In this document: positions 2,839 to 22,268 of the stretch, one piece after another
How the letters are laid out: each line of letters begins with the position of its first letter
Position numbering within the stretch: position 1 is the stretch's first letter
From: Chloroflexota bacterium
GTDB lineage: Bacteria > Chloroflexota > Dormibacteria > DASZGP01
Direction: 5' to 3'
Length of the DNA: 39,871 nt
Assembly (NCBI GenBank): GCA_034666445.1
Contig: JAXDLV010000224.1
Location: forward strand, 1-39,871
Made by a program: the position numbers and the translations under genes
Notes under the pieces: generated by a model
Databases searched by the model: none
Told to the model about the DNA's origin: nothing
Seen by the model: the letters and a program-made list of their open reading frames with translations, nothing else

Positions 2839-5679
2839 CTAGCTGCTGCTGCCCACTCCGCGGGCGATGTCCCAGCCCGGCCAGTAGGCGCTGGAATTGA
2901 CGGCGGGTGGCGTCGCGGTCGCCGCGAAGGGGTGAAGCCCGCCGTAGCCATCAAGGGTGTAGCCGCCGCTGCCACCCGTGAGGATGGTCACGCCACGGGC
3001 GATGTCCCAGCCCGTCCAGTAAGCGTGGGCGCTGTTCGCCACCGCCGGCGGCGGGGCGTTGCCGAATGGGTGGAGCCCGCCATAGCCGTCGAGGGTGTAG
3101 CCACCAACCAGGCCGCTCGCGCAGCGGGTCAGGACCAGCCCACGGGCGATGTTCCAGCCGGCCCAGTACTCGTGGCTGCCGTCGGCGACAGCGGGCACGC
3201 CGGGCCCCCACTGGTGGACACCGCCGTAGCCGTCGAGGGTGTAGCCGCTGCCGGGCACGTCAGGACACCCCGCGATCGACTCCGCGATGTCCCAGCCCGA
3301 CCAGTACCCGCTGATCGACGGGTCTGGCGGGTTGCCGGATGAGCCAAAGCCATGGACCCCGCCCCAGCCGTCCAGCGTGTACCCCCTCACCGACGGCAGG
3401 CAGCTGGTCAGCACCATGCCGCGGGCAATGTCCCAGCCATTCCAGTAGGCGTGCGCCCCGTCACCAATGTTGGGGGGCGCCGGGTCGCCAAACGGGTGGA
3501 CGCCGCCGTAGCCGTCCAGGGTGTACCCGCGGCGGTTGTCATCGGGGCACACCGCCACGGCGCGGGCGATGTCCCAGCCCCAGTAGGCGTGGCTGTTGTT
3601 CGCCACCGCCGGGCTGGTCCCGTAGCTGTGCACGCCGCCGTAGCCATCCAGGGTGTAGCCGCTGGGAACGTAGTTGAACGCTGCCGCGCGGGAGGCGCTG
3701 CCGCCTCCCTGGTTGGTCACCGACACGGTCACCTTGCCGTACGCGTGGCGTGGCACGACGACCTGGAGCTGGGTCGCCGAGAGGAAGGTGACCGCGGGCG
3801 AGGGTGTGCCGCCGAAGCTGACCGCCGGGGGGGCGCCCCCGGGGTTGGTGAACCCGCAGCCGTTGACCAGCACGGGGTCGCCGACCTGGCCGGCGCCCAG
3901 GCTGACGGAGTTGACCTGGAGGCTAGGGGTGACCGACCCCGACAGGATCATGGCCAGGTCGCCACCCCGGGGCGACCCCAGGCCGGTGGTGAAGTCCCAG
4001 CCGGCGGTCGCCTGGTACGCGAGGTTGCTGCCGCTGACGACGTCGTGGTACGGGGCGAGGTTGGCGGTGCACGCGGCGGCCCTGTACAGCCCTGGGTGGG
4101 GCCATCCCAGCCGGGGCCTGGCCTGCGCAATGGCGTACTGGTTGTACACGGCGCTGAGGCCGGCCCAGCCCGGCGACCCGGCGCTCGTGCCGGCCACCAC
4201 GGTCCAGGCACCTGCGGCGCAGCCGCTGGGGCCCTGGCAGGTGAAGACCGAGATGCCCGTGCGGGGGTCGGCGTCGAAGGCCACGTCGGGGACCTGCCGC
4301 CTGCCGTTGCTGTGGGGGTTGATCACCCCCGTGCCCGTTTGGTAGCTGGGGCGATTGAAGAACAGCGACAGGCCACCACCGGTCGCGATATCCGGGTTTG
4401 GGGCCGTGTTGGACCACGCGGTCTCTCCCCCGTACGCCGTCCCGTTGACGGTCAGGGCGGTGCCTCCCACGCCCACGACATAGGGGTCACTGGCGGGGCT
4501 GTCGACCACCAGGTGGTCGTTGAACGGGCGGCAGCCGTAGGCGCCGTGGTCACCGCTGGCAGCGTAGAAGCTGACGCCCTGCGCCGCTGCCTGCTGGAAG
4601 ATCTGGTCGAGGGTCAGCGACTCGGAGAGCGTCTGCAGCTCCTCGCAGAGGCCCCAGCTGGTGGAGCCGATGTCGAGGCTGCCGTCAGAGGCCATCGCCG
4701 AGTAGGCGTGGTTGACGCCCGGGTCGGTGTTGGGCGCCTCGTAAACGCGAATGACGACGTCACGGGCGACTCCCTGGAGGACCTCGATGTCCAGCTCGGC
4801 CTCGACCTGCCCGGGACCGGGGCTGGCCTGGTACCCGGGGGCGGCACCGTCGACGCTGATGATCGTGGGCGCCGGGAGGGGGGCGGCGTAGTAGTGGGCG
4901 TCGAAGGTGTTGACATCGCCCTGGTCGAAGCCGTCGAGCTCCAGCAGGCCCACCACCTGCCCCGCGCCGTTGCTGCCGGTCAGCGGCGCGCCGGCGACGT
5001 TGTACGCCCCCTTGACCTCGTTGGGCGTGTAGCCGCCGGCGGGTCCCGCCCCGGGTGCCCGCGGCTCTGCCGCCGAGGCGGCCGGCACGACGCGCGCGGC
5101 GTGGTGGCGGGTAACACGGTCCTGCAGTCCGTGCACGCCAAGGACCACGCCGGCCAGCGCGGCCGGCAGCGCAGGCACGAGGTCGTTGGCGTAGAACTCG
5201 CGACCCCCGTCCGGGTCACGGTAGCGGCCCAGCCTCGTGTGCAGGGCGCGGGCGATGGTGGACGCCGTCCCGCGGGCGTCGACCAGGGTGCGCGTGGTGT
5301 TGACGCCGGTCACCTCCAGCCCCGCGGCCGTGAGGAAGGTGCGGGCGGCCGCCACCTGCGCCGGCGTCGGCCCGAAGCGCGCGGTGAACTCGGCGGTCGT
5401 GAGGTAGCGCCCGTAGTCCGGGGAGCCCGGCGTCGACACCGCCTCCACCAGCGCGTCGAGCCCCGCCTGGTCGCGGAGCCGGAGCGCCAGCTGGATGTCC
5501 AGCACGCGTCCAGAGTCCACGTCGCCAAGCCGCTGCGCCGCCGCCAGCGCGGGTTGCAGCTCGCCGCGGGGGACCAGGTCGTCGGCGGCGGCGGGCGTGT
5601 ACCCGCCCAGCCCCCCGATGGCGGCGACCGCCGCCAGGACGGGCGCGAGCCGCCGCGTCACGCGCCGTCGGTACGGCAC
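2839..5679 (-). CDS. Secreted S53 (sedolisin/kumamolisin) peptidase with pro-domain, IPT/TIG domain and six C-terminal GYTLDGYGG repeats
   Basis: Signal peptide, then Pro-kumamolisin-like region (PGSPDYGRYLTTAEFTARFGPT). Catalytic E-x3-D (EAELD), oxyanion SGD and GTS nucleophile (AGTSAGSP) are present, as is the Ca-site-like GWDFTTGLGSP. An IPT-like segment (VLVNGCGF..VSFGG..QLQVVVP..VSVTN..FNY) follows. Confidence 0.9.
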   Translation of the reverse strand: MPYRRRVTRRLAPVLAAVAAIGGLGGYTPAAADDLVPRGELQPALAAAQRLGDVDSGRVLDIQLALRLRDQAGLDALVEAVSTPGSPDYGRYLTTAEFTARFGPTPAQVAAARTFLTAAGLEVTGVNTTRTLVDARGTASTIARALHTRLGRYRDPDGGREFYANDLVPALPAALAGVVLGVHGLQDRVTRHHAARVVPAASAAEPRAPGAGPAGGYTPNEVKGAYNVAGAPLTGSNGAGQVVGLLELDGFDQGDVNTFDAHYYAAPLPAPTIISVDGAAPGYQASPGPGQVEAELDIEVLQGVARDVVIRVYEAPNTDPGVNHAYSAMASDGSLDIGSTSWGLCEELQTLSESLTLDQIFQQAAAQGVSFYAASGDHGAYGCRPFNDHLVVDSPASDPYVVGVGGTALTVNGTAYGGETAWSNTAPNPDIATGGGLSLFFNRPSYQTGTGVINPHSNGRRQVPDVAFDADPRTGISVFTCQGPSGCAAGAWTVVAGTSAGSPGWAGLSAVYNQYAIAQARPRLGWPHPGLYRAAACTANLAPYHDVVSGSNLAYQATAGWDFTTGLGSPRGGDLAMILSGSVTPSLQVNSVSLGAGQVGDPVLVNGCGFTNPGGAPPAVSFGGTPSPAVTFLSATQLQVVVPRHAYGKVTVSVTNQGGGSASRAAAFNYVPSGYTLDGYGGVHSYGTSPAVANNSHAYWGWDIARAVAVCPDDNRRGYTLDGYGGVHPFGDPAPPNIGDGAHAYWNGWDIARGMVLTSCLPSVRGYTLDGWGGVHGFGSSGNPPDPSISGYWSGWDIAESIAGCPDVPGSGYTLDGYGGVHQWGPGVPAVADGSHEYWAGWNIARGLVLTRCASGLVGGYTLDGYGGLHPFGNAPPPAVANSAHAYWTGWDIARGVTILTGGSGGYTLDGYGGLHPFAATATPPAVNSSAYWPGWDIARGVGSSS
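2842..3660 (-). repeat. Six tandem ~45-aa protein repeats, GYTLDG(Y/W)GG(V/L)H...YWxGW(D/N)IA(R/E)
   Basis: Six copies counted in the translation. At DNA level, plus-strand 'gggtgtagcc' and 'gatgtcccagcc' recur. Confidence 0.9.
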
Positions 5680-5680
5680 G

Positions 5681-6895
5681 TCAGTCGCGCTCGCGCTCCC
5701 AGGCCGGGCCCAGCATCACCGCCATGAAGAAGGAGGCGAAGACCAGCTGGATGCCGACGACCGTCAGCGTGAGCGCCAGCACCGTCAGACGGATCTCGTA
5801 GAACGCGTCGAAGTTGGCCTTGAGCCTCTGCACCACCAGGAACAGGTCAGCCACAACGCCGACGACGGTGATGCCGATGCCCAGCAGCGCACCCATCTCG
5901 AGGCTGGCGTTGCGATTGAGCCAGGCGATCGCCCCGTGGCTGCTGCCCAGCCGGTGGGACGCCGAGTAGGCCTCGGCGAAGAGTCCCAGGCTGATGACCT
6001 GGAGGCCGACGACCACCGCGCCGCTGCACGCGATCATCGTGTGCAGGTCGAGCACCAGCCCGCCGGCGCGCAGCGGCCCCGGGGTCAGCAGCAGCATCAG
6101 GACCAGCCCCGGGATGAAGAGCGCGAGCCCCGGCACGAGGAAGAGGGCGGTCGGGCTGTAGAGCAGGATCAGGCGCAGGTGGCGCCAGCCGTCGCGGACG
6201 CGGTGCAGCTTGGTGTCGCCGGTCCGCGGGTAGTAGCGGATGGGCACCTCGGTGCGCCTCAGCTCGGCCCGGGCGGCGTGGATCACCATCTCCGACGCGA
6301 ACTCCATGCCGGTGGTGGTCACCTTCATCCGCTCGTAGGCGTCGCGCGTGAAGGCCCGCATGCCGCAGTGCACGTCGCGGATACCGGTGCGAAAGAGCAG
6401 GTTGAGCAGCCCCGACAGGACCGGGTTGCCGATGTAGCGGTTGCTCCACGGCATCGCCCCGGGCATGATCTCGCCGCCAAAACGGTCGCCGTTGACGTAC
6501 TCGTAGCCCTCGTCGAGGGCCGCCACGAAGCGGTCGAGGGCGTCGAAGTCGTACGTGTCGTCGGCGTCGACCAGGACGATGTATTCGCCCTGGGCGGCGG
6601 CGATGCCGCTGAGGTAGGCGCTGCCGTAGCCGCGGCGCCGCTCGGTGGTCACCCGCGCCCCGAGGGAGGCGGCGATCTCGGCCGACCGGTCGGTGGAACC
6701 GTTGTCGGCGACCACGACCTCGCCGTCGAGGCCGTACCTGTCCAGCGCCGCGCGCGCCTTGGTGATGCAGCTGGCGATCGCCCGTTCCTCGTTGAGGCAG
6801 GGCATCACGATCGAAACCCGGGGGACACGGAGAGGGTCGACCACGGCGGCCGTCCCCAGGGCGCCGGTTTTGGGCCCCACGTCGGCCGCGGTCAT
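5681..6895 (-). CDS. GT2 polyprenol-phosphate glycosyltransferase-like (DPM/DPG-synthase-like) with C-terminal TM helices
   Basis: Motifs SIVMPCLNEE, VADNGSTD, GYGSA, DAD (VDADDTYD), DVHCGMRAF, GMEFASEM and DGWRHL. About four hydrophobic segments at the C-terminus. Confidence 0.9.
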   Translation of the reverse strand: MTAADVGPKTGALGTAAVVDPLRVPRVSIVMPCLNEERAIASCITKARAALDRYGLDGEVVVADNGSTDRSAEIAASLGARVTTERRRGYGSAYLSGIAAAQGEYIVLVDADDTYDFDALDRFVAALDEGYEYVNGDRFGGEIMPGAMPWSNRYIGNPVLSGLLNLLFRTGIRDVHCGMRAFTRDAYERMKVTTTGMEFASEMVIHAARAELRRTEVPIRYYPRTGDTKLHRVRDGWRHLRLILLYSPTALFLVPGLALFIPGLVLMLLLTPGPLRAGGLVLDLHTMIACSGAVVVGLQVISLGLFAEAYSASHRLGSSHGAIAWLNRNASLEMGALLGIGITVVGVVADLFLVVQRLKANFDAFYEIRLTVLALTLTVVGIQLVFASFFMAVMLGPAWERERD

Positions 6896-11247: not shown

Positions 11248-11311
11248 ATGCTACACCCTGCCGCGGCGCTGCCCGGGAGGCGGCGGACGGGCCCGGGTTG
11301 TTGGATAGACT
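11248..11311. promoter_or_regulatory. Divergent -10 boxes: TAGCAT (11253-11248, -) for the FkbM gene and TAGACT (11306-11311, +) for ahcY
   Basis: TANNNT hexamers lie 6 and 7 nt before the respective GTG starts (11241 and 11319). No SD in either case. Confidence 0.55.
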
Positions 11312-11318
11312 TGCCGCC

Positions 11319-12593
11319 GTGAATGTGAAGACCGCCGTCCGGCACGACGTCACCGACCTTGGCCTCGCCGCCGAGGGCAAGCGCCTCATCGACTGGTCCG
11401 CCCGCGAGATGCCGGTGCTGCGGCAGATCCGGGAGCGCTTCGCGGCGGAGAAGCCGCTGCAGGGCATCCGCATGTCGGGCTGTCTTCACATCACCACCGA
11501 GACGGCCAACCTGGCGATCACCCTGCAGGCCGCCGGCGCCGACCTGACCCTCTGCGCCAGCAACCCGCTCTCCACCCAGGACCCGGTCGCCGCGGCGCTG
11601 GTCGCCGAGCACGGAATCGCCACCTTCGCGCGCAAGGGCGAGGACAACGACACCTACTACCAGCACATCAAGGCCGCGCTGGAGTCGATGCCCCAGATGA
11701 CGATGGACGATGGCTGCGACCTGGTGTCGGAGCTGCACCAGCGGCCCGAGTCGGCGACGGCCGAGGTGTTCGGTGGCCTTGAGGAGACGACCACAGGCGT
11801 CATCCGTCTCCGCGCGATGGAGAAGGCAGGGGTGCTGCGCTTCCCCATCGTCGCCGTCAACGAGGCGCTGACGAAGCACATGTTCGACAACCGCTACGGC
11901 ACCGGCCAGTCCACCCTCGACGGCATCATCCGCGCGACCAACACCCTGCTGGCGGGCAAGACGTTTGTCGTCTGCGGCTACGGGTGGTGCGGCCGCGGGC
12001 TGGCCAGCCGCGCGTCGGGCATGGGCGCCCACGTGGTGGTCACCGAGGTCGACCCGCTGCGTGCCCTGGAGGCCGTGATGGACGGCTACCGGGTCGCCCG
12101 CCTGGAGGACATCGCCCCTGAGGCCGACTTCGTGGTCACCGTCACCGGCGACCTCAACGTGATCGACCGGCGCCACATCGAGAAGCTCAAGGACGGCGCC
12201 ATCGTGGCCAACTCGGGCCACTTCAACGACGAGATCAACATCACGGCGATGGACGAGATGAGCACCGAGGTCAAGCGGGTGCGCACCTTCGTCGACGAGT
12301 ACCGCCTGCAGGATGGGCGCTCCGTCTTCCTGCTCGGTGAGGGCCGCCTGATCAACCTGGCGGCGGCCGAGGGTCACCCCGCCGCGGTGATGGACATGAG
12401 CTTTGCCAACCAGGCGCTGTCGGCCGAGTACATGGCGAAGAACCACGCCAGCCTGGACAAGAAGGTCTACGACGTCCCCGAGGAGATCGACAAGGAGGTC
12501 GCCAAGCTCAAGCTCGCGGCGATGGAGGTCGACATCGACGTCCTGACCCCCGAGCAGGAGAAGTACCTGGCCTCCTGGGAGTCGGGAACCTAA
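11319..12593 (+). CDS. ahcY: Adenosylhomocysteinase (SAH hydrolase)
   Basis: Motifs [76 protein letters not shown] and MDMSFANQ. Start taken as GTG 11319. Confidence 0.97.
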
Positions 12594-12606
12594 GTCGTTC
12601 GGCTCA

Positions 12607-13219
12607 CGAGATCTGCCGACAGCAGCGGCTGATCTGTAGTCACCAGGCCGGCCGACGCCGCACATCCTGGGGGTTCATCCGGCCGGCGCCGCGACCAGGC
12701 CTTTCAAATCGCACCGCGCCGGCCTGCCTGCGCGGGCGGCCGCGCTGGCATCAGCCGTGGGTCTCTGCTTTCCGCCCGCTCCGGAAATCACCCCCAGGAT
12801 GCGCGACGCCGTCCGCCCTGGACTGCGCACCACGGCGCCGCTGCTCTGATCCGCGATGTCCTCATCGGAGGTGGGGGCAGCCGTTGACCACTTGTCGACA
12901 GCGGCAGGGCAAGCGCCGCGCCGTTGAGCTGCCGAAGGTAACCGCGGGCAGAGAACACCTCTAACAAGTCATCGCGGATAGAGGGACGGCTACCCCCGCG
13001 CGCAGTCCCGAGTGCCGGGTGCTGCAGACCCGGGGGCGATTTACGGAGCGGGCGGGATACGCACCTGGCAGGAGATGACCGGATCACGGCCGCACGCGCA
13101 GTAGGCCGGCGCAGTGGCATTGGAATCGCTGAACGCAGCGCCGGCCGCATGAGCCCTCGGGTCTGCGGCTCCCGGCGCCAGGGCCACCCGATACCCGCGG
13201 CAGCTGCCGCGATATCTCG
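12607..13219. repeat. ~613-bp nested imperfect palindrome (non-coding, possible structured RNA or ssDNA element)
   Basis: Exact inverted blocks in near-constant register about a centre at ~12913: 12607-12612/13214-13219, 12680-12689/13138-13147, 12716-12725/13103-13112, 12772-12783/13044-13055, 12820-12828/13000-13008, 12849-12858/12970-12979 and 12868-12873/12956-12961. Each arm is also self-complementary. Confidence 0.9.
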
Positions 13220-13221
13220 GG

Positions 13222-16200
13222 TCAGGCGGCGAGCTCACCCGTCAGGAGGGTGGGGGAGAACTGGCCCGAGATCGGCCCCGCACCGGCGTGGATCGTCACC
13301 CCGGGCGCGTTCCGGTTGGTCTTCCACTTCAGCTTGAAGACGTAATCGTGGCCTGTCGTCATCGCGAACTTCGTCTGCACGAACGCGGCGTTGGGAGAGA
13401 ACGTGCCGGCGAAGCCGCCGCTCTCCTTCCAGGCGAGCAGGGTGTCGCCGCCGCCGTTGTCGCTGACGAAGATGCCGATGTCCTGGTTGTAGCCGGCGAC
13501 CTCGGTCCAGAGGTCGATGTTGCCGCCCAGGAGCATCGAGCCGGAAACCGCCGGGGTGAACGCGAAGGTCGTCGCGCTGCTGAGCGTCTGCCATGTCAGG
13601 CCGTTCGAGCCGTTGAGGCTGAACTGCCCGGTGGAACGGCCGCTCAGGGGGTTGACGTCGTGGGGGATGACCTGGGCAGAGAGGCTCGTCGGCGAGAACG
13701 CGCCGTTGAACGGACCGGCGCCGGCGTGGATCGTCACCCCGGACGCGGGCCTGTTCGCCTTCCACTTCAGCTTGAAGGTGTAACTGTGCCCCGCCACCAT
13801 CGTGTGCGTCGCTTTGACGAATGCGGCGTTGGGCGAGAACGTCCCGGCAAAACCGCCGGACTCCTTCCAGGCGACCAGCTGGTCACCGCCGCTGTTGTCG
13901 CTGACGAAGATCGCGAGGTCCTGGTTGTAGCCGGCGGTATCGGTCCACAGGTCGGCACTGCCACCCAGCACGGCCGTCGAGTCGCCAGTCGGGTTGAGGG
14001 TGGCGCTGGCGCCCAGCAGCTGCCAGGTGACACCGTTGGAGTTCGCCAGGGATTGCTGGAAAGTGGTCACCCCGAAGCTGGGCACCACGCCGACGGGGAA
14101 GGACTGCACGGTCAGGGACGTGGGCGAGAAGAGCCCGCCGAGCGGCCCGGCCCCGGCGTGGATGGTGTTAGCCGGGGCGGGCTTGTTGGGTTTCCACTTC
14201 AGCTTGAAGGTGTACGAGTCGCCTCCGGTCATGCTGTAGGCCACCTGGACGAAGGCTGCGTTGGGCGAGAAGGTCCCGGCAAAGCCCCCGGACTCCTTCC
14301 AGGCCAGCAGCTCGTCAGCGCCGCTGTTGTGGGACACGAAGATGCCAAGGTCCTGGTTGTAACCCTCGCTCGAGGTCCAGAGGTCGGCGTTGGCGGTCAC
14401 CAGCGCGGTGCGGTTGTTGCCCCCGGGTGAGTTGATCAGCAGGTTGGCCGGGTCCAGCTCAACCCAGGTCGCCCCATTGTTGGCGCTCGCCAGGGTGTAC
14501 TGCGCTGTTCGCGACACGGTATTGACAAAGGGCAGCGCCGGGGCCGGCTGGACGTCGACGAAGCCGGTCACCGTCACCGCCTGGCCGTCCGGGTTGGTGA
14601 TGGTGAGGTCCTGCGGCCCGACGCTCGCGGCGCTCGTGTCGAGGCTGAGGCTGACGTGCGTGGGGTCGATGTAGCTGACGCTGTTGACCACCACCCCCCC
14701 GGTGATGGCGGCCTGGAGGTGGTTGGGGATGTTGGCGGCGGGGTCGAAGAAGCCGCTGCCGCTGACGGACGTGCCGGTGACCGAGAGCGTGGTGGCGGTG
14801 CGGTTGGTGAAGACCGGGCCGCTGCTGGACGTCGGCGTCGCCGGCGGCGGCGCGAGCAGCCTGACCGCCTCGACGCCCCACGAGTCGTTGGCGTTGGTGA
14901 ACTCCTGGATGGTCCACATGGTCATGTCATCGCTGGGGTCGAGGCTGGTGTAGGAGTAGTCGCCCCAGCGGTGCGGGTTGGCGCTGTCCGCGACGTTGTA
15001 GGTGAAGGCGCTCGCCTGGTAGATCACCGGGGTTTGCATCGTGCCGGGGCTGTCGCCCACCAGCCGCCCCATCGTGGCCGCCTCGGCGTGCTCGAGGTTG
15101 CCGGCGACGCTGCTTCCCATCGCAACGTGGCCCTGGCCCGACACCATCAGCGAAGGGATGAAGTAGAAGCGCGGGTTGGTGGCCGCCGGGTCGAACACCG
15201 TGCCGGACTGGTTGAGCGATGGCGCGGCCGCGAGGTTGCCGATGTCATACCAGCGAATCGCGTCGCGATCAGCCGTGCAGTTGCCGCCGGAGACCGTCGC
15301 CACCCCGCCGCTGTTGACGCAGATGTTGTGAGCGGTCCACAGGTGCCCGGCCCGAAGGTGCGCGGCCATCAGGCGGTCGTCCGTGGCGTCGAGGTTCACC
15401 GTGCTGCCGAGCGCGGGCACGCCGAGCGGGGACGACGTCAGCGGGACTGACAGCGCCAGGAGGGTGGCGCTGGGGCTGGTGCCAGGGTTGCTGACCCGGG
15501 CGATGTCGAGGCGCCCGAACACGCAGACCGAGATGCCGATGAAGAAGCCCTGGGTCGCACCCGGCGAGAGGTTGTCCACCCCCTGCGGCGAGTAGGGGCC
15601 GTCACCTCCGGAGCCGCAGGTTGTGCCGTTGGGGGACAGGATGAAATGGGTCGGGGACGGGGTGTTGGCGAGCAGCCCGGCTTTGGGGATTACCAGCCCG
15701 TCCGAGCCGGCGAAGGTCGTCACGTTGTTGCAGAAGACGTTGCCGCCGATATAGAGGGCACTGGCGTCTATCCCCAGGGTGTCGTAGTCCCACGCGCAGC
15801 TGGGGCGGAAGTTGGTGACGGGGAAGAACCCGCCCTGGAACAGGGTGGAGTTGGTGACCACGCCGCCGTTGGTGTAGCCCACCAGGATCTTGTTGCTGGG
15901 GGACTCGGCGGTGATCATCGTGAAGAACCACCGGTCGGTGAGGCGGTCGTAGCGGATGCGGGGATCCGACGTGCCGGCCTGGCCCCAGAACGCGTTGGTG
16001 GTCATGTCCAGCACCCCATCCGCCACGCCGGTGGCCTTGTTGAAGCTGCGGATGCGGCCGTTGATCATCACGATGTACTGGGTCGGGCCGACGGCGCCCA
16101 TGCTGTCCGGGGGCACCGCGCCGGAGTCACTCAGCTGGGCGCCGAGGAACTGCGTTCCCGGGGTCTGGGGCAGCAGCGGGCCGCGTACCGGGGCGCGCGC

Positions 16201-16488
16201 CGGCGAGGAGGTCGCCGGGTCGGCGGTGGCGTGCAGCTGGGCCGAGCCGGGGTCGACGCCGCGCTCCCCGCGCAGCGCCGGTCGCGGCGCCCGGGCGGTG
16301 GGCGGGCCAGGCACCGGGGCCATGGCGCGCAGCTGCGCCACGCTCCGCGCCGGGAGCATCGTCATCTGCACCTGGGTGCCCTTCACCACGCGACCGGCGT
16401 CGGTGGTCGCGGCGAGCGCGCCGTGTGGGAACATCGCCGCGGCCGCCACCACGGTGATGGCGGCAAGGTCGCGTAGCGTCCGCCCCAT
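13222..16488 (-). CDS. Large secreted protein: putative beta-propeller domain, Ig/IPT-like domain and three C-terminal WKESGG repeats
   Basis: Signal peptide ending ..HGALA and a Pro-rich segment. Motifs PPDSMGAVGP, SDPRIRYD and RWGDYS. Ig-like stretch VVNSVSYIDPTHVSL..QDLTITNPDGQ. Three ~140-aa terminal repeats. Confidence 0.8.
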   Translation of the reverse strand: MGRTLRDLAAITVVAAAAMFPHGALAATTDAGRVVKGTQVQMTMLPARSVAQLRAMAPVPGPPTARAPRPALRGERGVDPGSAQLHATADPATSSPARAPVRGPLLPQTPGTQFLGAQLSDSGAVPPDSMGAVGPTQYIVMINGRIRSFNKATGVADGVLDMTTNAFWGQAGTSDPRIRYDRLTDRWFFTMITAESPSNKILVGYTNGGVVTNSTLFQGGFFPVTNFRPSCAWDYDTLGIDASALYIGGNVFCNNVTTFAGSDGLVIPKAGLLANTPSPTHFILSPNGTTCGSGGDGPYSPQGVDNLSPGATQGFFIGISVCVFGRLDIARVSNPGTSPSATLLALSVPLTSSPLGVPALGSTVNLDATDDRLMAAHLRAGHLWTAHNICVNSGGVATVSGGNCTADRDAIRWYDIGNLAAAPSLNQSGTVFDPAATNPRFYFIPSLMVSGQGHVAMGSSVAGNLEHAEAATMGRLVGDSPGTMQTPVIYQASAFTYNVADSANPHRWGDYSYTSLDPSDDMTMWTIQEFTNANDSWGVEAVRLLAPPPATPTSSSGPVFTNRTATTLSVTGTSVSGSGFFDPAANIPNHLQAAITGGVVVNSVSYIDPTHVSLSLDTSAASVGPQDLTITNPDGQAVTVTGFVDVQPAPALPFVNTVSRTAQYTLASANNGATWVELDPANLLINSPGGNNRTALVTANADLWTSSEGYNQDLGIFVSHNSGADELLAWKESGGFAGTFSPNAAFVQVAYSMTGGDSYTFKLKWKPNKPAPANTIHAGAGPLGGLFSPTSLTVQSFPVGVVPSFGVTTFQQSLANSNGVTWQLLGASATLNPTGDSTAVLGGSADLWTDTAGYNQDLAIFVSDNSGGDQLVAWKESGGFAGTFSPNAAFVKATHTMVAGHSYTFKLKWKANRPASGVTIHAGAGPFNGAFSPTSLSAQVIPHDVNPLSGRSTGQFSLNGSNGLTWQTLSSATTFAFTPAVSGSMLLGGNIDLWTEVAGYNQDIGIFVSDNGGGDTLLAWKESGGFAGTFSPNAAFVQTKFAMTTGHDYVFKLKWKTNRNAPGVTIHAGAGPISGQFSPTLLTGELAA
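13225..14520 (-). repeat. Three ~140-aa repeats (ADLWT..GYNQDxxIFVS..AWKESGGFAGTFSPNAAFV..YxFKLKWK..AGAGP..FSPT)
   Basis: Three copies visible in the translation of 13222-16488. Confidence 0.9.
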
Positions 16489-16552
16489 CAGAGGAGCTCA
16501 GTGTACGCACGCGGTTCCGGACGGATACGAGGCGGTACGGCGGCGCGGAAGT

Positions 16553-16581
16553 TTGACGGGCCCGGTACCCGGGCGTAGAGT
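16553..16581 (+). promoter_or_regulatory. Sigma70-type promoter for the Ig-repeat gene, with a dyad in the spacer
   Basis: TTGACG (16553-16558), 17-nt spacer, TAGAGT (16576-16581). The spacer holds GCCCGG-tac-CCGGGC (16560-16574). Confidence 0.6.
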
Positions 16582-16660
16582 CCCCGGTACACCACGGGGC
16601 GGATGGCGGTCCCCTTGAGCGTGGTATCGCCGGGGATTTTCGTATTCGAGGACTGAGCTG

Positions 16661-19600
16661 ATGAACACGATCACTGGACGTAGCCGCCATGCCGTCGCGC
16701 CCCGCCACGGGGCGACCCGGCGCGTGAAGCTGCTTGCCGTAACCGTGGTCCTCGCTGTCGCGGGGCTGGCCAATGGTGGCGTGGTGCCCGTGGTCTTTGC
16801 CGCGTGCAACAGCGAAGCCACCTGCAGCACCGTCACCGCCTCACCCAACCAGGTCCCGGCGAACAACACGACCACCTCCACGATCACCGTCTCGCTCAAG
16901 AACAACCTCGGCGTCCCGATCGTCGGCAACACCGTCACCCTGGCCAAGATCGCCGGCGTCGGGTCGCCCACCATCAGCCCTGCCTCCGGTCCTTCGAATG
17001 TCCTTGGTGTTGTGACCTTCACCGTCAAATCGGCCACCAATGGGACAGACACGTTCCAGGCCACCGACACGACGTCGGGGACGGTCATCGCACAGACCGC
17101 GGAGGTGACCTTCGGGCCGGTCAGTGACACCCACAGCACCGTGACGGCCAGCCCGAACCAGGTCCCGGCCGACGGCGCGACCGCATCGACGATCACCGTG
17201 ACCCTGAAGGACCAGAACGGGGTCGGCGTGGCGGGCAAGAGCGTGACCCTGGCGGCGATCTCCGGCTCGCCGACGCCGAGCATCAGCGGCCCGGCGACCA
17301 CCAATGGCAGCGGCGTCGCCACGTTCTTCGTGACCTGCACCGCCCCCGGGACCAGCACGTTCCAGGCCACTGACACCACCGACAGCCTGGTTGTCGTGCA
17401 GACGGCGCAGGTCACCTTTGGCCCCGTGAGTCAGACCCAGAGCACGGTCACGGCCAGCCCCGGGTCCGTAACCGCCGACGGCTCCACCGTTTCGACGATC
17501 ACCGTGACGCTGCGCGACCAGTCCGGTAACCCGGTGAGCGGCAAGACGGTCTCGCTGGCCAAGACCGCCGGCCCGGGATCTCCGACGATCAGCGCGGCCT
17601 CCGGGCCATCCGATGGAGGCGGCGTTGTGACGTTCACCGTCAAGTCCACCACCGTCGGCACAGACACGTTCCAGGCCACCGACACCGCCGACACGGTGAC
17701 CATCGACCAGACCGCCGACGTCAACTTCACCACCGGCCCGGTTAGTGCCGCTGACAGCACCGTGACGGCCAGTCCGACCAACGTCCCTGCCGACGGGACC
17801 ACGATCTCCACGATCACAGTCACGCTGCTTGACTCCCAGGGTCACCGGATCAGCGGTCGCACGGTCTCGGTCTCCAAGACCTCGGGGCCGGGCGCCCCGG
17901 TGATCAGCCCACCCTCGGCCGTGTCCGACGCCAACGGGGTGGCCACCTTCACGGTGAAATCCACGACCGTTGGGACGGACGTCTTCACCGCCACCGACAG
18001 CTCTGACGCCATCACGATTACCCAGACGGCCTCCGTCACGTTCGACACCGGTGCCGTCGACGCGGCGCACAGCACGGTCACCGCCAGCCCCAACCAGGTG
18101 GCCGCCGACAACACCGCGACCTCCACGATCACCGTCACTCTCAAGGACTCGCTGGACCATGCCGTCCCCGGCAAGACCGTCACCCTGGCCCAGGTCGCCG
18201 GGGTCGGCGCGCCCACGATCAGCGCCGCCTCCGGTCCCTCGGACGCGAACGGTGTCGTCACCTTCACAGTGAAGTCGGCGACCACCGGGACGGACACCTT
18301 CCAGGCGACCGACACCAGCGACGCCGTCACCATCACCCAGACGGCGGAGGTGACGTTCGGGCCGGTCAGCGACACCCACAGCACGCTGTCCGCCACCCCG
18401 GGCACGGTGCCCGCGGACGGCGCCACACCGTCCACCGTGACGGTAACCTTGAAGGACGCCAACGGCGCTGGGGTTGCGAGTAAGACCGTTTCGCTGGCGA
18501 AGACCGCCGGCCCCGGGACGCCGAACATCAGCGCCCCCTGCGTCACCAATGGCAGCGGTCAGTGCACCTTCAGCGTCACCTCCTTCAACGCCGGTACGGA
18601 CACATTCACCGCCACCGATACCACTGACAACCTGGTGGTGACCCAGACGGCCAACGTCACGTTCACAGCGGGTGGCGTCAATGCGGCTCACAGCGACGTG
18701 TCGGCCAGCCCGACATCGGTACCCGCTGACGGCTCAACCACGTCCACCATCACGGTCACTCTCAAGGACGTTCACGACAACCCGGTCAGCGGGAAGACGG
18801 TCACCCTCTCCAAGACCGCGGGCCCGGGGAGCCCGACGATAAGCGCCGCGTCGGGCCCATCCGACTCGAACGGGCAGGTGACCTTCACGGTCAAGTCCAC
18901 CACCCTGGGCAACGACACATTCCAGGCCACCGACACGACCGACAGCGTGATCGTCACCGACACGGCCGACGTGACATTCACCGCCGGTCCGGCTGACGCA
19001 GGCATGAGCACCGTTTCGGCCAGCCCGACGTCCGTGGTGGCCGACGGGACCACCACCTCCACGATCACCGTGACCCTCAAGGACGCCAACGGGAACCTGG
19101 TGAGCGGCAAGACGGTGACCCTGGCGAAGAGCGCTGGTCCCGGCACGCCAACCATCAGCTCGGCCTCCGGGCCGTCTGACGTCAACGGCGTGGTCACGTT
19201 CACTGTGAAATCGACGACCGCCGGCATCGACACGTTCCAGGCCACAGACACCACGGACAGCGTGACCATCACCCAGACGGCCAACGTCACCTTCACCGCC
19301 GGCGCGGTGAACGCGGCCAACAGCACGGTCAGCGCCAGCCCGACCAGCGTCCCGGCGGACGGGACCACCACCTCGACGATCACCGTCACGCTGAAGGACG
19401 CCAACAGCAACCCCGTCAGCGGGAAGGCGGTGACCCTCGCCAAGACCTCCGGCCCGGGCTCGCCGACCATCACGGGGCCGAGCCCGACGCTGACTGACGC
19501 CAACGGCCAGGTCACCTTCCTGGTACGGTCGTCGACCCCGGGAATGGACACCTTCCAGGCCACCGACACCACCGACAGCGTCGTGGTCACCCAGACCGCC

Positions 19601-20947
19601 CAGGTGACCTTCACCGTCTTCAGCCCGCCCCTGCCGAACTCGGCCGGCTCGCGCTCGACGCAGCAGTACCAGCTGCCGAATAGTGATGGAGCGACCTGGC
19701 AGGAGATCGACCAGGCCCTCCGCGTGGTCCGCGCCCCCGCCCAGGCCCGCGCCGTGCTCCTGACGGCCAACGCCGACCTCTGGACGGCGACGGCTGGGTA
19801 CAACCAGGACCTGGGCATCTTCGTTTCCGACAACGGTGGCGGCGACTCGCTGCTCGCGTGGAAGGAGAGCGGCGGTTTCGCGGGCACTTTCTCGCCGAAC
19901 GCCGCGTACGCGCAGGTGCTCTACAACATGGCCGCCGGCCACACGTACACCTTCAAGCTGAAGTGGAAGACGAACAAGCCGGCCAGTGGGGCGGTCATCT
20001 ACGCCGGAGCGGGTCCCATCAGCGGGCAGTACTCGCCGACCTCGCTGATCGCCAAGGTCTACCAGCCGGGCGCCGCGCCTGTGTTCAGGTCGCGGACGCA
20101 GCAGTTCTCCCTGTCGGATTCCAACGGCACCACCTGGCAGACGATCGACGGGACCAACCTGGCCACCACCGTGTCGCCTGCCTTCACCTCCGTCGCTGTC
20201 GTTGGCGGTAATGCCGACCTCTGGACCTCCAGCACCGGGGTCAACCAGGACCTCGCGATCCTGGTCAAGGTAGACGGTGGTGCGGACCAGCTGCTTGCCT
20301 GGAAGGAGAGCGGGGGGTTTGGCGGGACGTTCTCGCCCAACGCCGCCTTCGTCAAGGCGAGGCTGCCGATGACCGCGGGTCACAGCTACGCCTTCCGGCT
20401 GGCCTGGAAGTCGAATAACAACACCTCGGGCACCGGCAAGACCATCTTCGCCGGCGCCGGACCCATCTCGGGTCAGTACTCGCCCACCAGCCTGCTGGTG
20501 GAGACCCAGGCAGCCTCGGAGGCCGCGGCGTCCGCGCTCTCCAACAGCCAGTACCAGCTGACCGGTTCCAACGGGTCAACCTGGCAGCTGATGGACCCGG
20601 CGCTGAACGTGACGCTCTCGCCGGCTGACAGCGGCCAGGCGATCCTGGGTGCAAACGCCGACCTCTGGACGACGGTGTCGGGCTACAACCAGGACATCGC
20701 GATCTTCGTCTCCGACAACAGTGGCGCCGACCAGCTGCTTGCCTGGAAGGAGAGTGGCGGGTCGGCGGGCACGTTCTCGCCCAACGCCGCCTACGTCCAG
20801 GACCTGTTCACCGTCACCGCGGGGCACACGTACGTCTTCAAGCTGAAATGGAAGACGAACCGCAATGCGCCCGGGGTGACCATCGTCGCCGGCGCGGGCT
20901 CCGCGCCCTTCTCCCCGACGAGGCTAATCGCCGAGACCACCCTGTAG
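16661..20947 (+). CDS. Large secreted adhesin-like protein: nine invasin/Big_1-type Ig repeats and three C-terminal WKESGG repeats
   Basis: N-terminal hydrophobic signal. Nine ~103-aa units STVxASP.xVPADG..xSTITVTLKD..GN.VSGKTVTL..D.NG.VTFTV.S...G.DTFQATDT..QTA.VTF, matching the Big_1 pattern. Three terminal repeats are shared with the divergent neighbour. Confidence 0.88.
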   Translation: MNTITGRSRHAVAPRHGATRRVKLLAVTVVLAVAGLANGGVVPVVFAACNSEATCSTVTASPNQVPANNTTTSTITVSLKNNLGVPIVGNTVTLAKIAGVGSPTISPASGPSNVLGVVTFTVKSATNGTDTFQATDTTSGTVIAQTAEVTFGPVSDTHSTVTASPNQVPADGATASTITVTLKDQNGVGVAGKSVTLAAISGSPTPSISGPATTNGSGVATFFVTCTAPGTSTFQATDTTDSLVVVQTAQVTFGPVSQTQSTVTASPGSVTADGSTVSTITVTLRDQSGNPVSGKTVSLAKTAGPGSPTISAASGPSDGGGVVTFTVKSTTVGTDTFQATDTADTVTIDQTADVNFTTGPVSAADSTVTASPTNVPADGTTISTITVTLLDSQGHRISGRTVSVSKTSGPGAPVISPPSAVSDANGVATFTVKSTTVGTDVFTATDSSDAITITQTASVTFDTGAVDAAHSTVTASPNQVAADNTATSTITVTLKDSLDHAVPGKTVTLAQVAGVGAPTISAASGPSDANGVVTFTVKSATTGTDTFQATDTSDAVTITQTAEVTFGPVSDTHSTLSATPGTVPADGATPSTVTVTLKDANGAGVASKTVSLAKTAGPGTPNISAPCVTNGSGQCTFSVTSFNAGTDTFTATDTTDNLVVTQTANVTFTAGGVNAAHSDVSASPTSVPADGSTTSTITVTLKDVHDNPVSGKTVTLSKTAGPGSPTISAASGPSDSNGQVTFTVKSTTLGNDTFQATDTTDSVIVTDTADVTFTAGPADAGMSTVSASPTSVVADGTTTSTITVTLKDANGNLVSGKTVTLAKSAGPGTPTISSASGPSDVNGVVTFTVKSTTAGIDTFQATDTTDSVTITQTANVTFTAGAVNAANSTVSASPTSVPADGTTTSTITVTLKDANSNPVSGKAVTLAKTSGPGSPTITGPSPTLTDANGQVTFLVRSSTPGMDTFQATDTTDSVVVTQTAQVTFTVFSPPLPNSAGSRSTQQYQLPNSDGATWQEIDQALRVVRAPAQARAVLLTANADLWTATAGYNQDLGIFVSDNGGGDSLLAWKESGGFAGTFSPNAAYAQVLYNMAAGHTYTFKLKWKTNKPASGAVIYAGAGPISGQYSPTSLIAKVYQPGAAPVFRSRTQQFSLSDSNGTTWQTIDGTNLATTVSPAFTSVAVVGGNADLWTSSTGVNQDLAILVKVDGGADQLLAWKESGGFGGTFSPNAAFVKARLPMTAGHSYAFRLAWKSNNNTSGTGKTIFAGAGPISGQYSPTSLLVETQAASEAAASALSNSQYQLTGSNGSTWQLMDPALNVTLSPADSGQAILGANADLWTTVSGYNQDIAIFVSDNSGADQLLAWKESGGSAGTFSPNAAYVQDLFTVTAGHTYVFKLKWKTNRNAPGVTIVAGAGSAPFSPTRLIAETTL
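16820..19620 (+). repeat. Nine tandem Big_1-like Ig domains (~310-bp period)
   Basis: Nine STV(T/S)ASP-type unit starts counted. DNA repeats such as 'ttccaggccaccgacac' and 'acgatcaccgt' recur. Confidence 0.88.
19650..20944 (+). repeat. Three ~140-aa WKESGG repeats
   Basis: AWKESGG(F/S)(A/G)GTFSPNAA occurs three times, each with flanking NADLWT, NQD and (K/A)WK motifs. Confidence 0.9.
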
Positions 20948-20952
20948 CCGTC

Positions 20953-20978
20953 GGGCCCGGCCCTAACCGGCCGGGCCC
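20953..20978 (+). terminator. Perfect 10-bp GC hairpin after the Ig-repeat gene
   Basis: GGGCCCGGCC-ctaacc-GGCCGGGCCC starts 5 nt after the stop. No U-tract follows. Confidence 0.55.
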
Positions 20979-20979
20979 C

Positions 20980-21068
20980 TATAATCGGCCCAACATTTAG
21001 CCCCGGGCAGGAGCGAGCGGACAGCACAACGGCTGCGCCGTGGTCGCCGGCGGGGAGGAGGAAACCGC
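20980..21068 (+). promoter_or_regulatory. metK promoter (-10 TATAAT) and structured ~75-nt leader with strong SD
   Basis: TATAAT at 20980-20985. The leader can pair CCCCG (21001-21005) with CGGGG (21051-21055), next to AGGAGG, enclosing a multi-segment hairpin. Confidence 0.55.
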
Positions 21069-22268
21069 ATGACGCACGCGCGTCTCTTCACGTCGGAGTC
21101 CGTCACCGAGGGGCATCCCGACAAGCTCGCCGACCAGATCTCGGACGCAATCCTCGACGACATCCTGTCCAAGGATCCCCTCGGTCGGGTCGCCTGCGAG
21201 ACGGTGCTCAGTACCGGTCTCGCGGTGGTCGTCGGGGAGATCACCACCGACACCTACGTCGACATGGCCAAGGTGGCCCGCAACACGATCCGCGAGGCGG
21301 GCTACACCCGCGCCAAGTACGGCATCGACTGGGAGACCTGCGGCGTCCTCGTCAGCGTCGACGAGCAGTCGCCCGACATCGCCCAGGGTGTCAACACCGG
21401 CGGCGCCGGCGACCAGGGGATGATGTTCGGCTTCGCATGCGACGAGACCCCGGAGCTGATGCCTGCGCCGATCCAGTACGCCCACAACCTCACACGGCGG
21501 CTGGCCGCGGCGCGCAAGGACCACACCCTCAAGTGGCTCCGCCCCGACGGCAAGAGCCAGGTGACGGTGGAGTACGAGGGCAACAGGGTCAAGCGCATCC
21601 ACACCGTGGTCGTCAGCTGTCAGCACTCCGAGGAGGTGGACAGCAAGCAGGTGGCCGACGACGTCCGCGAGGTCATCGTCGAGGAGGCGATCCCGGGGAA
21701 GCTGATCGACAAGGACACGATCTTCCACATCAACCCGACCGGCCGCTTCGTCCTCGGCGGGCCCCAGGCGGACGCCGGCCTGACCGGGCGCAAGATCATC
21801 GTCGACACGTACGGCGGGTACGCCCGTCACGGCGGTGGTGCGTTCAGCGGCAAGGACCCGAGCAAGGTTGACCGCTCCGCGGCGTACGCCGCGCGCTGGG
21901 TGGCCAAGAACATCGTGGCCGCGGGGCTGGCGCACCGCTGCGAGGTCCAGCTGGCCTACGCCATCGGCGTGGTCAAGCCGGTTTCCGTGCGGATCGACAC
22001 GTACGGCACCGAGACGGTCGACGTGGAGAAGATCCACGACCTGGTCGATCACCACTTCGACCTCTCGCCGTTCGGGATCATGAAGGACCTCGACCTGCGC
22101 CGCCCGATCTTCAAGCAGACGGCCGCCTACGGCCACTTCGGCCGCAGCGACCTCGACCTTCCCTGGGAGCGCACCGACCGCGCCGAGGCGCTGGCCGCCG
22201 ACGCGGGTGTGAAGGTCCCGGAGCGGCAGCTCCAGCCGGCGGGCGCCGACGGGGCCGGCGCTGGCTGA
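21069..22268 (+). CDS. metK: S-adenosylmethionine synthetase
   Basis: Motifs [71 protein letters not shown] and TAAYGHFGR. Confidence 0.98.

Follow-up and report, generated by a model that had tools for sequence, protein, structure and literature searches.

In a 39,871-nucleotide stretch of DNA from a Chloroflexota bacterium (assembly GCA_034666445.1, contig JAXDLV010000224.1; this whole stretch is called the window below) two large genes lie head-to-head, and the proteins that they encode, P0001 (13222..16488, minus strand, 1088 amino acids) and P0002 (16661..20947, plus strand, 1428 amino acids), have different N-terminal parts and close in the same way, each with three tandem repeats of about 142 amino acids. 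The question that this locus raises is what the triple repeat is and what it does at the end of two such different exported proteins. The reading that we favor, and to which we give a probability of roughly 0.55, is that it is a one-chain trimer of the TNF/C1q type that serves as a portable lectin-like module holding exported proteins on a surface.

The repeat and its family

A preliminary description of the locus, made from its letters alone, had reported the divergent gene pair and three C-terminal repeats of about 140 amino acids in each protein, and both were recovered here as open reading frames (ORFs) 13222-16488 (-) and 16661-20947 (+) with six copies in all. In P0001 the modules occupy 14095..14526 (amino acids 655-798), 13663..14082 (803-942) and 13225..13650 (947-1088, the end of the protein), all on the minus strand, and score 241.2, 240.9 and 252 bits, respectively, against a profile built from the six copies, the third being backed by an AlphaFold2 (AF2) model as well. 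In P0002 they lie on the plus strand at 19640..20065 (994-1135; 257.6 bits), 20078..20512 (1140-1284; 235.8 bits) and 20525..20944 (1289-1428, again the protein end; 241.2 bits). Pairwise identity among the six modules is 54-65% over the 15 pairs, and 50 columns are invariant, including DLWT, NQD, AWKESGG, GTFSPNAA, WK.N, AGAG and SPT. The near-invariant motifs that had been proposed stood except for KWK.N, because the second repeat of P0002 reads AWKSN and only W-K-x-N is invariant. At the DNA level the repeats appear as the direct families D4/D5 and the inverted pairs I1-I11 (71-85%).

When the module region was searched against Pfam (2025 copy), no family matched it in P0001 or P0002 at E ≤ 1, and this includes C1q, TNF and Bc2l-C_N. 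NCBIfam (June 2026) has no model for the module, in 50 relatives sampled at even intervals the Pfam matches shown all lay outside it, and a sequence profile search of the PDB with the six copies gave nothing better than an unrelated phage tube protein at E 0.18. The module had been called unrecognised and unlike SLH or CWB2, and this agrees with what was found: SLH (PF00395) did not match the two proteins and gave 0 matches in the whole genome, in a search whose control was positive in 4 of 14 reference genomes, and CWB2 (PF04122) had no Pfam match on P0001 or P0002 at E ≤ 1. LPxTG was likewise absent, as had been claimed, from both proteins and from the last 60 amino acids of all 245 three-module relatives. 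The search with a hidden Markov model (HMM) of the six copies, which the preliminary description had proposed, matched 444 representatives at E ≤ 1e-3 and 300 at E ≤ 1e-30 among 1.84 billion proteins, and therefore the repeat family is not a chance likeness. Across 663 modules, 36 of the 138 columns are conserved at 90% or more.

Predicted fold and assembly

An AF2 model of one module, built on the six-row alignment, is an all-beta sandwich of 11 strands with a pLDDT (predicted local distance difference test) of 85.7. Structural matches were sought with Foldseek and then with VIA, and the statements made here cover the matches listed. The top Foldseek matches of the single module were the C-terminal domain (CTD) of Pgp3, the N-terminal lectin domain of BC2L-C, Bd2734-CTD, a cyanophage fibre domain and birnavirus VP2. 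In VIA the best one-domain matches were PLTL (9ib6, 9ib7; Z 13.7, root-mean-square deviation (rmsd) 2.3 Å over 120-121 amino acids) and BC2L-C-Nt (2wq4; Z 13.6), at a sequence identity of 10-13%, and these were followed by the Chlamydia Pgp3 CTD (Z 13.5) and, with Z 10-11, by F-BclA, BxpB, EDA, the C1q domain of Caprin-2, TRAIL, RANKL and BclA. Viral capsid proteins excepted, all the named VIA matches are trimer-forming jelly rolls of the TNF/C1q type, and they cover residues 1-142 of the predicted model, which thus has a TNF/C1q-like jelly-roll fold.

The C-terminal 434 amino acids of P0001, comprising all three modules, were modelled on an alignment of 56 proteins, namely the units of P0001 and P0002 and 54 of 250 relatives that have an M start, at most 800 amino acids and three terminal modules. 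This model reached a pLDDT of 91.5 and a predicted TM-score (pTM) of 0.92. Its top six Foldseek matches in the PDB were, by their titles, single-chain or fused trimers of C1q, APRIL-BAFF, Cbln1 and adiponectin, with TM-scores normalised to the query (TMq) of 0.50-0.62; below these six the TM-score was 0.25 or less. With VIA-align it superposed on 5hzf with Z 31.9 and an rmsd of 2.7 Å over 341 amino acids, and on 5hkj, 4dou, 4zch and 5kca with Z 31.4, 31.0, 29.3 and 28.8, respectively. These five best matches cover residues 1-434 of the model and the next ones are one-domain matches with Z of about 14. Since the whole chain superposes on single-chain trimers, the predicted arrangement is that of a canonical TNF/C1q trimer in one chain, which is the beta-sandwich pseudo-trimer that the preliminary description had proposed, and its suggested comparison with C1q, TNF and BclA was correct.

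As a check on trimer formation, three copies of a single-module paralogue from the window's genome (amino acids 89-239 of the L008 ORF) were modelled together on an eight-row alignment, A3. They were predicted to trimerise with an ipSAE (interaction prediction score from aligned errors) of 0.81, compared to 0.00 in the best of three controls, and the runs had at least 88% of contacts in common and a pLDDT of at least 83. In the calibration of the ipSAE mark, which was done on two copies with its own alignments, 20 of 30 solved pairs reached it and so did 1 of 23 single chains. A passing score can also arise because a protein resembles TNF trimers of solved structure. The compact threefold trimer of the superfamily is thus seen in predictions which may lean on those solved trimers.

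The confident interface of the paralogue trimer includes residues of the invariant NQD, WKESGG, SPNA, AGAG and SPT motifs, so that assembly accounts for part of the conservation. WKESGG and SPNA, the longest two of the invariant runs, both fall within the predicted interface between protomers, a position compatible with, and not specific for, a carbohydrate pocket between protomers. When all invariant positions of A3 were counted, 18 of 41 were in the interface list where about 15 were expected from the share of residues, which means that invariant positions overall are not enriched there. The loop that carries ESGG and SPNA is, if the strands are assigned as we assume, the D-E loop. The D-E loop has a role in receptor binding by TNF. 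These interface data also bear on the view that the unit is a passive structural cap, a stable one-chain trimer that shields exported proteins from soil proteases or aids their folding and has no ligand. Invariant runs within the interface, a confident and compact predicted fold and the lack of any ligand clue are what such a cap would give; we consider it very unlikely, however, because an appendage of 430 amino acids on more than 1000 different proteins is costly, because the solved relatives of the fold all bind something, and because the unit can be internal or doubled.

Copy number and position of the modules

Copy number was examined in the best 150 representatives, a list that was ranked by summed score and so favors multi-copy proteins, together with the two window proteins. 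Three modules were present in 151 of these 152 and the remaining one has two and is cut at the protein end. In a database of 90% clusters (255-2000 amino acids) 1358 matches were obtained among 7999 scored candidates, and of 100 longer proteins newly listed from it 94 have three modules, two have six, three have five (two of them with a module cut at the protein end) and one is broken. The copy number is therefore almost always three or six, on varied secreted cargo as had been described. The spacer between modules, beyond the profile, has a median of 4 amino acids with an interquartile range of 3-4 in 245 three-module proteins. Most of the short matches (77-254 amino acids, n=530) are fragmentary and lie on contigs of about 1 kb; among the best 120 of them 84 hold parts of two or three modules and one looks like a complete one-module protein.

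Within a protein the modules are on average 60.6% identical, whereas between proteins they are 53.6% identical at the same position and 52.5% at different positions (221 proteins, 663 modules), and 534 of the 663 modules find their closest match among other proteins at the equivalent position. An ancient fixed asymmetry of modules 1, 2 and 3 was considered and rejected on these figures, which show homogenisation within the protein. Since the modules of one protein are the more alike, three copies have been kept in spite of homogenisation, and this is what the closure of a trimer would be expected to demand. Taken with the models, the copy-number rule makes it well supported, as a prediction, that the three modules are a natural one-chain pseudo-trimer of the TNF/C1q-like kind. 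The relative closest to P0001 (P0373/P0183, both with a longest contig of 295,013 bases), whose N-terminal domain is 70% identical, is interrupted: the second module runs into an out-of-frame tail and the third is a separate ORF of 147 amino acids with 81% identity, as a result of a frameshift or of faulty assembly.

The usual place of the unit is the C-terminus, and the tail after the last module is at most 10 amino acids in 143 of the 152 proteins. A position of this kind recalls the C-terminal secretion or sorting signals that are read by a dedicated machine, like the CTD of the type IX secretion system (T9SS) or PEP-CTERM, and cargo of the P0001 type has Por_Secre_tail in other phyla. That the unit is such a signal looks highly improbable to us. 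The extreme C-terminus is not obligatory, as more than 50 amino acids follow the unit in 9 of the 152 (two of these nine, P0109 and P0112, are cut at the N-terminus), and in five of the seven that were scanned (P0092, P0136, P0134, P0113 and P0080) TIG, Laminin_G_3, Big_1 or He_PIG stands behind it. In addition, the unit is 430 amino acids long and confidently folded in prediction, its bearers already have Sec signals, no conserved machinery is encoded nearby, and no Omp85 match was found in the window's genome (G000, 93.5% complete), which is consistent with a single membrane.

Export, cargo and distribution

Export could be assessed in 154 of 234 three-module proteins, the other 80 having no M start or no N-terminal part. 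A signal-like hydrophobic region was found in 115 of the 154 and none in 39, several printed examples of which look truncated at the N-terminus; a further transmembrane-like stretch was present in only 3 of the 154. Homologues are thus mostly triple and secreted, and no Pfam match on the module was seen in the two window proteins or among the matches shown for the 50 sampled relatives; a match to a characterised domain of another function, or homologues mostly single or cytoplasmic, were the outcomes that the preliminary description had named as fatal to its proposal.

When every third of the 150 representatives was scanned with Pfam, 34 of the 50 had matches, and the cargo included Peptidase_M23 with fn3 (two proteins), Cellulase with TIG, Phosphoesterase, Pro-kuma_activ, PQQ, FG-GAP, DUF11, PKD, Tachylectin and arrays of Big_1, with an fn3, TIG or Big_1 domain typically immediately ahead of the triple unit. 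Glycoside hydrolases GH5 and GH18 are among the cargo, and source names included RCC1-repeat protein, streptogramin lyase, endoglucanase, acid phosphatase, YkwD and YvpB. Three repeats borne as a unit by diverse exported proteins are one mark of the triple-repeat anchor class, and this architecture is seen here, with six as the other recurrent number.

The named relatives come from soil or peat metagenome-assembled genomes (MAGs) labelled 'Candidatus Dormibacteraeota/Dormiibacterota' or 'Chloroflexi/Chloroflexota bacterium', with one set labelled 'uncultured Actinomycetes' and one contig labelled 'Gemmatimonadetes' as the odd cases, and the sequencing runs that contain the window DNA are soil metagenomes, with no RNA run among those listed. 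The window's genome (2.62 Mb, 242 contigs) fits the published account of Ca. Dormibacteria, which, as far as the part of that source concerned with genome features goes, are confined to soil and have a median size of 2.87 Mb and 66.9% G+C (PMC10608941). Module matches were found in 5 of 41 genomes of the class (8, 3, 12, 47 and 24 matches) and in 5 of 301 genomes of a phylum sample in which at most 13 candidates were scored per genome; outside the class only 2 of 12 genomes of one family (f18) had them, and both the 41 and the 301 take in one module-negative genome, G032. The module is thus lineage-specific, as had been claimed. One genome of the class (G026) has 47 matches, or about 16 proteins, many of them in tandem clusters (contigs C3, C4, C5, C35 and others) and including one frame of 1475 amino acids with six modules, which is a strong lineage-specific expansion.

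Since more than 1,300 distinct secreted proteins of a soil lineage that is uncultured and globally common carry the module, and neither Pfam nor NCBIfam has a model for it, an HMM would label a large share of the surface proteins and exoproteome of the Dormibacteria type at once.

Relation to known systems

The three-module model resembles 5hzf, 5hkj (C1q head), 4dou (adiponectin), 4zch (APRIL-BAFF-BAFF) and 5kca (Cbln1) in having three jelly-roll protomers in one polypeptide, with Z 28.8-31.9 and an rmsd of 2.7-3.7 Å over 329-360 residues at a sequence identity of only 8-9%. By their entry titles these are laboratory constructs of animal proteins, whereas the module belongs to a natural bacterial family with spacers of about 4 amino acids and is fused to enzymes and stalks. 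As far as the PDB matches show, such a design is otherwise only engineered, and the unit would supply a natural case of it, in structural terms the counterpart of the single-chain TNF/C1q trimer that engineers built by hand. In our search of the literature on pseudo-trimers, tandem C1q-like proteins and single-polypeptide TNF-like proteins no natural bacterial one-chain TNF-like trimer was found among the entries listed, and in that on the cell envelope and surface proteins of Dormibacterota no description of the module was found. As a sequence family the module is new; three C1q-like domains in one natural chain are, however, already known from a mussel, HcC1qDC6 having three tandem gC1q domains and being described as binding bacteria, peptidoglycan and lipopolysaccharide in the pertinent part of that report (PMC5519582). 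HcC1qDC6 is like the unit in its three C1q domains per chain and differs from it in being an immune lectin with no detectable sequence relation, and it does not recur as a tag on enzymes. One-chain trimers seem to exist in viruses too, since five viral models in BFVD of about 370-840 amino acids superpose on the whole unit with TMq 0.54-0.69: A0A6J5RA88 and A0A6J5LW36 are from phages and A0A1X9VNK7, A0A3G4ZPZ6 and A0A3G5A5X5 from Mimivirus, Terrestrivirus and Hyperionvirus. They are uncharacterised predictions, have no detectable sequence relation to the module and are not recurrent tags on enzymes.

The best one-domain matches are lectins. PLTL and BC2L-C-Nt are described as trimeric with sugar sites between adjacent protomers in the portion of PMC12914763 that treats them. 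They are homotrimers (a hexamer in PLTL) of separate chains of about 130 amino acids, whereas the unit of Dormibacteria is one chain, and it shows a route by which a homotrimeric lectin head could become a portable monomeric fusion module. The Chlamydia Pgp3 CTD (Z 13.5) and BclA, F-BclA and BxpB (Z 10.3-11.3) are likewise bacterial TNF/C1q-like jelly rolls that form trimeric heads; Pgp3, BclA and ExsFA/BxpB differ in being homotrimers on coiled-coil or collagen-like stalks with a single copy per chain, and they are not promiscuous fusions.

The presence of exosporium proteins among these matches brings up the possibility that the unit is a protein-protein docking module which plugs into a scaffold, an S-layer or a lattice of the spore-coat kind, as with BclA/ExsF in the exosporium or dockerin and cohesin. 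BclA CTD, F-BclA and ExsFA/BxpB match with Z 10.3-11.3, and TNF and C1q heads commonly bind proteins. Candidate partners would be two divergent single-module paralogues in the window's genome (167 and 151 bits), which are predicted to be secreted or membrane-bound. Docking is unlikely in our judgement, since the best structural matches are lectins and not the protein-binding members, no conserved partner gene lies next to the module genes, and no co-varying family was identified. As to the paralogues themselves, one (L007, 1036-1926, plus strand of its own locus) has 296 amino acids and an RRRLL motif like that of twin-arginine (Tat) signals after a charged N-terminal stretch. The other (L008, 1216-1935, plus strand) has 239 amino acids with an N-terminal transmembrane-like segment and a linker that contains Cys, and its layout resembles that of the eukaryotic type II membrane TNF ligands.

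The closest functional parallels are SLH and CWB2. In the relevant portion of PMC4973711 both are given as three tandem repeats that act as one unit on varied surface proteins, wall hydrolases and proteases included, the SLH repeats forming a pseudo-trimer and the authors proposing the same for CWB2. The unit of Dormibacteria follows the same rule of three and has equally varied cargo. It differs in having an unrelated fold and sequence and modules of 142 amino acids rather than about 55 and about 100, no linked polymer locus was found, and CWB2 repeats are non-interchangeable whereas its own are homogenised within the protein.

A proposed portable binding module

In the mechanism that we envisage, each repeat of about 142 amino acids would be a TNF/C1q-type jelly-roll domain, and three copies joined by spacers of about 4 residues would pack round a pseudo-threefold axis into a compact bell-shaped body, one chain thus replacing the homotrimer of three chains in TNF ligands, C1q heads and bacterial TNF-like lectins. 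A soil lineage of the Dormibacteria type would have fused this triple unit, usually C-terminally behind an Ig-like spacer, to unrelated Sec-exported proteins, so that wall hydrolases, glycosidases, proteases, phosphatases, propellers and Ig-repeat stalks would all carry the same portable device. The three grooves between protomers would bind a repeating glycan in the manner of a lectin, and the cargo would thereby be kept on, or directed to, a surface, most plausibly that of the cell's own envelope, as SLH x3 and CWB2 x3 do. That the unit binds, that it binds a glycan and that the glycan is on the surface of the producer we infer by analogy. A conserved portable unit that is found on unrelated exported proteins and whose nearest relatives are lectins is most simply a common binding module, and retention on the own envelope is favored by the analogy with SLH x3 and CWB2 x3 and by the M23 wall hydrolases among the cargo.

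If the unit is an anchor, its ligand would reveal a new envelope polymer of Dormibacteria, and if it is a lectin, a stable one-chain trimer would be at hand as a probe or scaffold. The most specific form of this proposal, that the unit is a third type of triple-repeat anchor after SLH and CWB2, a one-chain TNF/C1q-like lectin trimer that recognises an envelope glycan and is a common address tag of the exoproteome, we offer tentatively, as something that falls somewhat short of even odds. Were it true, such an anchor would have been invented independently and would tag up to about 16 proteins in one genome, and nature would be using one-chain TNF-like trimers widely, in prokaryotes as well as in their viruses.

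A different reading makes the unit a distal targeting head, comparable to a carbohydrate-binding module (CBM) or an adhesin tip, that binds an external plant, fungal or microbial polysaccharide, soil particles or other cells, and that concentrates enzymes on their substrate or tips an adhesin stalk rather than tethering proteins to the own wall. The nearest solved relatives are indeed distal heads (PLTL, BC2L-C-Nt, Pgp3, BclA and the fibre tips of phages and Bdellovibrio), and P0002 is laid out like an invasin-type adhesin, with a head at its end borne on nine Big_1 repeats and an N-terminus that may be lipid-anchored. Some proteins apparently consist of a signal peptide and the triple unit without cargo, the first module starting at residue 59 of 491 in P0011 and at residue 44 of 474 in P0086 with no Pfam cargo above the cut-off, and the distribution is patchy, expanded and accessory. 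The patchiness, the lack of any linked ligand locus or ligand-synthesis gene, the acidic isoelectric point (pI) and the head-at-tip geometry of the superfamily keep this reading alive, and we regard it as doubtful without being negligible. It is at odds with a cargo for which a shared substrate outside the cell is not apparent (M23, sedolisin, phosphoesterase, RCC1 and PQQ propellers), and conservation of 36 of the 138 columns fits one ligand better than diversified targets. In most members, moreover, the signal peptide is cleavable and nothing else is present that would retain the protein.

The reading that we prefer, the lectin-like module that holds exported proteins on a surface, has several observations to its disadvantage. 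The high trimer score of the three-module model may partly reflect the memory that the predictor has of solved TNF/C1q trimers, and the conservation of WKESGG and SPNA may, if the predicted interface is right, come from assembly rather than from a shared ligand. That the solved relatives of the fold are all distal heads fits an adhesin or targeting role equally well, and a lipid anchor at the N-terminus of P0002, if the motif there is used, may place its triple unit at the outermost end. The mild acidity of the units (median pI 5.0, with 201 of 221 below 6) gives no support to the binding of anionic wall polymers. The window's genome already has 7 sortase matches. A patchy distribution, in 5 of 41 and 5 of 301 genomes, is odd for a core wall anchor, although MAG assembly may lose repeat-rich module genes, which would make non-detection weak evidence; many module matches are on contigs of 1-5 kb. 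Finally, no conserved gene for a partner or for the synthesis of a ligand was found near the module genes, no co-occurrence with the glycosyltransferase (GT) or methyltransferase genes of the window was seen across the 41 genomes, and no neighbour family was conserved in more than 3 of 37 sources when the ORFs of 36 related loci and the window were compared all against all.

Layout of P0001 and P0002

The N-terminal part of P0001 begins with a typical signal peptide at 16411..16488 (minus strand; amino acids 1-26), which was read from a hydrophobic core (hydrophobicity 2.39 over 12 amino acids) and an ALA/AT site. It is followed by the cargo domain at 14809..16191 (amino acids 100-560), for which 2232 homologues of about 50% identity were found in MAGs of Actinomycetota, Nitrospirota-type, Myxococcota, Acidobacteriota-type and Chloroflexota. 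As this domain has no Pfam family at E ≤ 1 and no PDB sequence match by phmmer, it is, going by its sequence relatives, a large, conserved and unannotated secreted family that spans many phyla. The propeller-like character that the preliminary description had given it found no backing in these searches. The triple unit is on 12 of 120 listed homologues; the other tails on domains of this type are Por_Secre_tail, which is a T9SS sorting domain, TIG/Qn_am_d_aIII, He_PIG and DUF11. Tails that are interchangeable in this way indicate that the triple unit fills the slot where other lineages put sorting or display domains of their own. The spacer between cargo domain and modules, 14527..14808 (amino acids 561-654), has no Pfam match in P0001, is at a position where relatives have TIG or fn3, and is probably Ig/TIG-like; in the nearest ESM-Atlas cluster for P0001 (0.94) TIG is present in 87% of the members.

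P0002 starts with a hydrophobic stretch at 16661..16807 (plus strand; amino acids 1-49) that ends in a lipobox-like FAAC, and from this crude regular-expression match and the hydrophobicity it is possible that the protein is lipid-anchored through Cys49. While the absence of LPxTG stood, the accompanying claim that neither protein has a membrane anchor therefore needs this caveat. The stalk that follows, at 16808..19639, consists of nine Big_1/Invasin_D3 Ig-like repeats, in agreement with the nine Ig repeats reported earlier: there are nine Pfam stretches with E from 2e-104 to 5e-117, and the DNA repeat family D3 has nine copies spaced by 306-318 nucleotides. A Big_1 stalk is shared with the inverse autotransporter adhesins (invasin/intimin); no beta-barrel anchor of these was found in P0002 by Pfam, and the NCBIfam model IatC reaches 19 bits, where its cut-off is 2400, and aligns with the Ig repeats only. 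The two genes are separated by 172 bp (16489..16660), in which a consensus scan found one sigma-70-like site, where 0.4 are expected, at 16553-16581 on the plus strand upstream of P0002.

Genomic neighbourhood

The two module genes are flanked by ahcY (11298-12593) and metK (21069-22268), and farther out in the window, whose G+C content is about 64-75%, there are nucleotide-sugar and glycosyltransferase genes, a sedolisin-TIG protein and ABC transporters. When the same neighbourhood was compared between genomes of the same bacterial family, the window's genome had its two module genes in the ahcY-metK interval (12594-21068), whereas in G007 the order is sedolisin-UGDH-epimerase-PfkB-ahcY-metK-manC with ahcY and metK adjacent and no module gene, and in G009 the gap between ahcY and metK is about 0.9 kb. 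In G010 one module gene lies beside metK and the interval holds an FkbM-type gene and two GT4 genes (its two loci L018 and L050 give an identical match table and were counted once); the contigs of G001 and G003 break off 1.5-2.1 kb upstream of metK. This synteny shows that the module genes are variable inserts in a conserved housekeeping neighbourhood, and the surrounding nucleotide-sugar genes are kept in relatives without module genes. Two or more module genes were present in 13 of the 36 sources that have any.

The preliminary description had suggested that the module might bind the glycan made by the neighbouring glycosylation genes. The FkbM methyltransferase of the window was found in 1 of the 41 genomes, the window's own, and its GT4 gene (GT4b) in 8 of the 41, that is in 2 of the 5 genomes that have the module and 6 of the 36 that lack it. 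A scan of 100 neighbouring ORFs of at least 279 amino acids from 31 related loci (out of 132 ORFs of at least 200 amino acids, the shortest being dropped) placed genes of the GT1 or GT2 families within 6 kb at 6 of the 31 loci, and at 10 of the 31 if any glycan-assembly gene is counted (Wzy_C, Bac_transf, flippase and nucleoside-diphosphate-sugar enzymes in addition). The window's genome has 22 GT1 and 24 GT2 matches in about 29 places, so that by a rough estimate a GT lies within 6 kb of about 17% of random positions, and GT genes are thus not enriched near module genes. On synteny, co-occurrence and background frequency the suggestion was rejected as a general rule.

As to the envelope itself, no match to Omp85 was found in the window's genome, and with the lack of SLH this is consistent with a single-membrane envelope, though absence from a MAG is not proof.

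The sedolisin encoded in the window at 2839-5679 (minus strand) is a secreted protein of 946 amino acids with Pro-kumamolisin and TIG and is without the triple unit, whereas the sedolisins of two relatives, P0042 and P0332, do bear it. Two long ORFs on the plus strand of the window, 522-2828 and 3352-5727, have no Pfam match and are probably shadows of minus-strand genes. With regard to metK, all 10 sampled relatives from one family, f4 (G013, G016, G019, G022, G025, G028, G031, G034, G037 and G040), gave two matches each, and several of these contain in-frame TGA or TAG, for instance two TGA and one TAG in G022 and two TGA each in G028 and G034.

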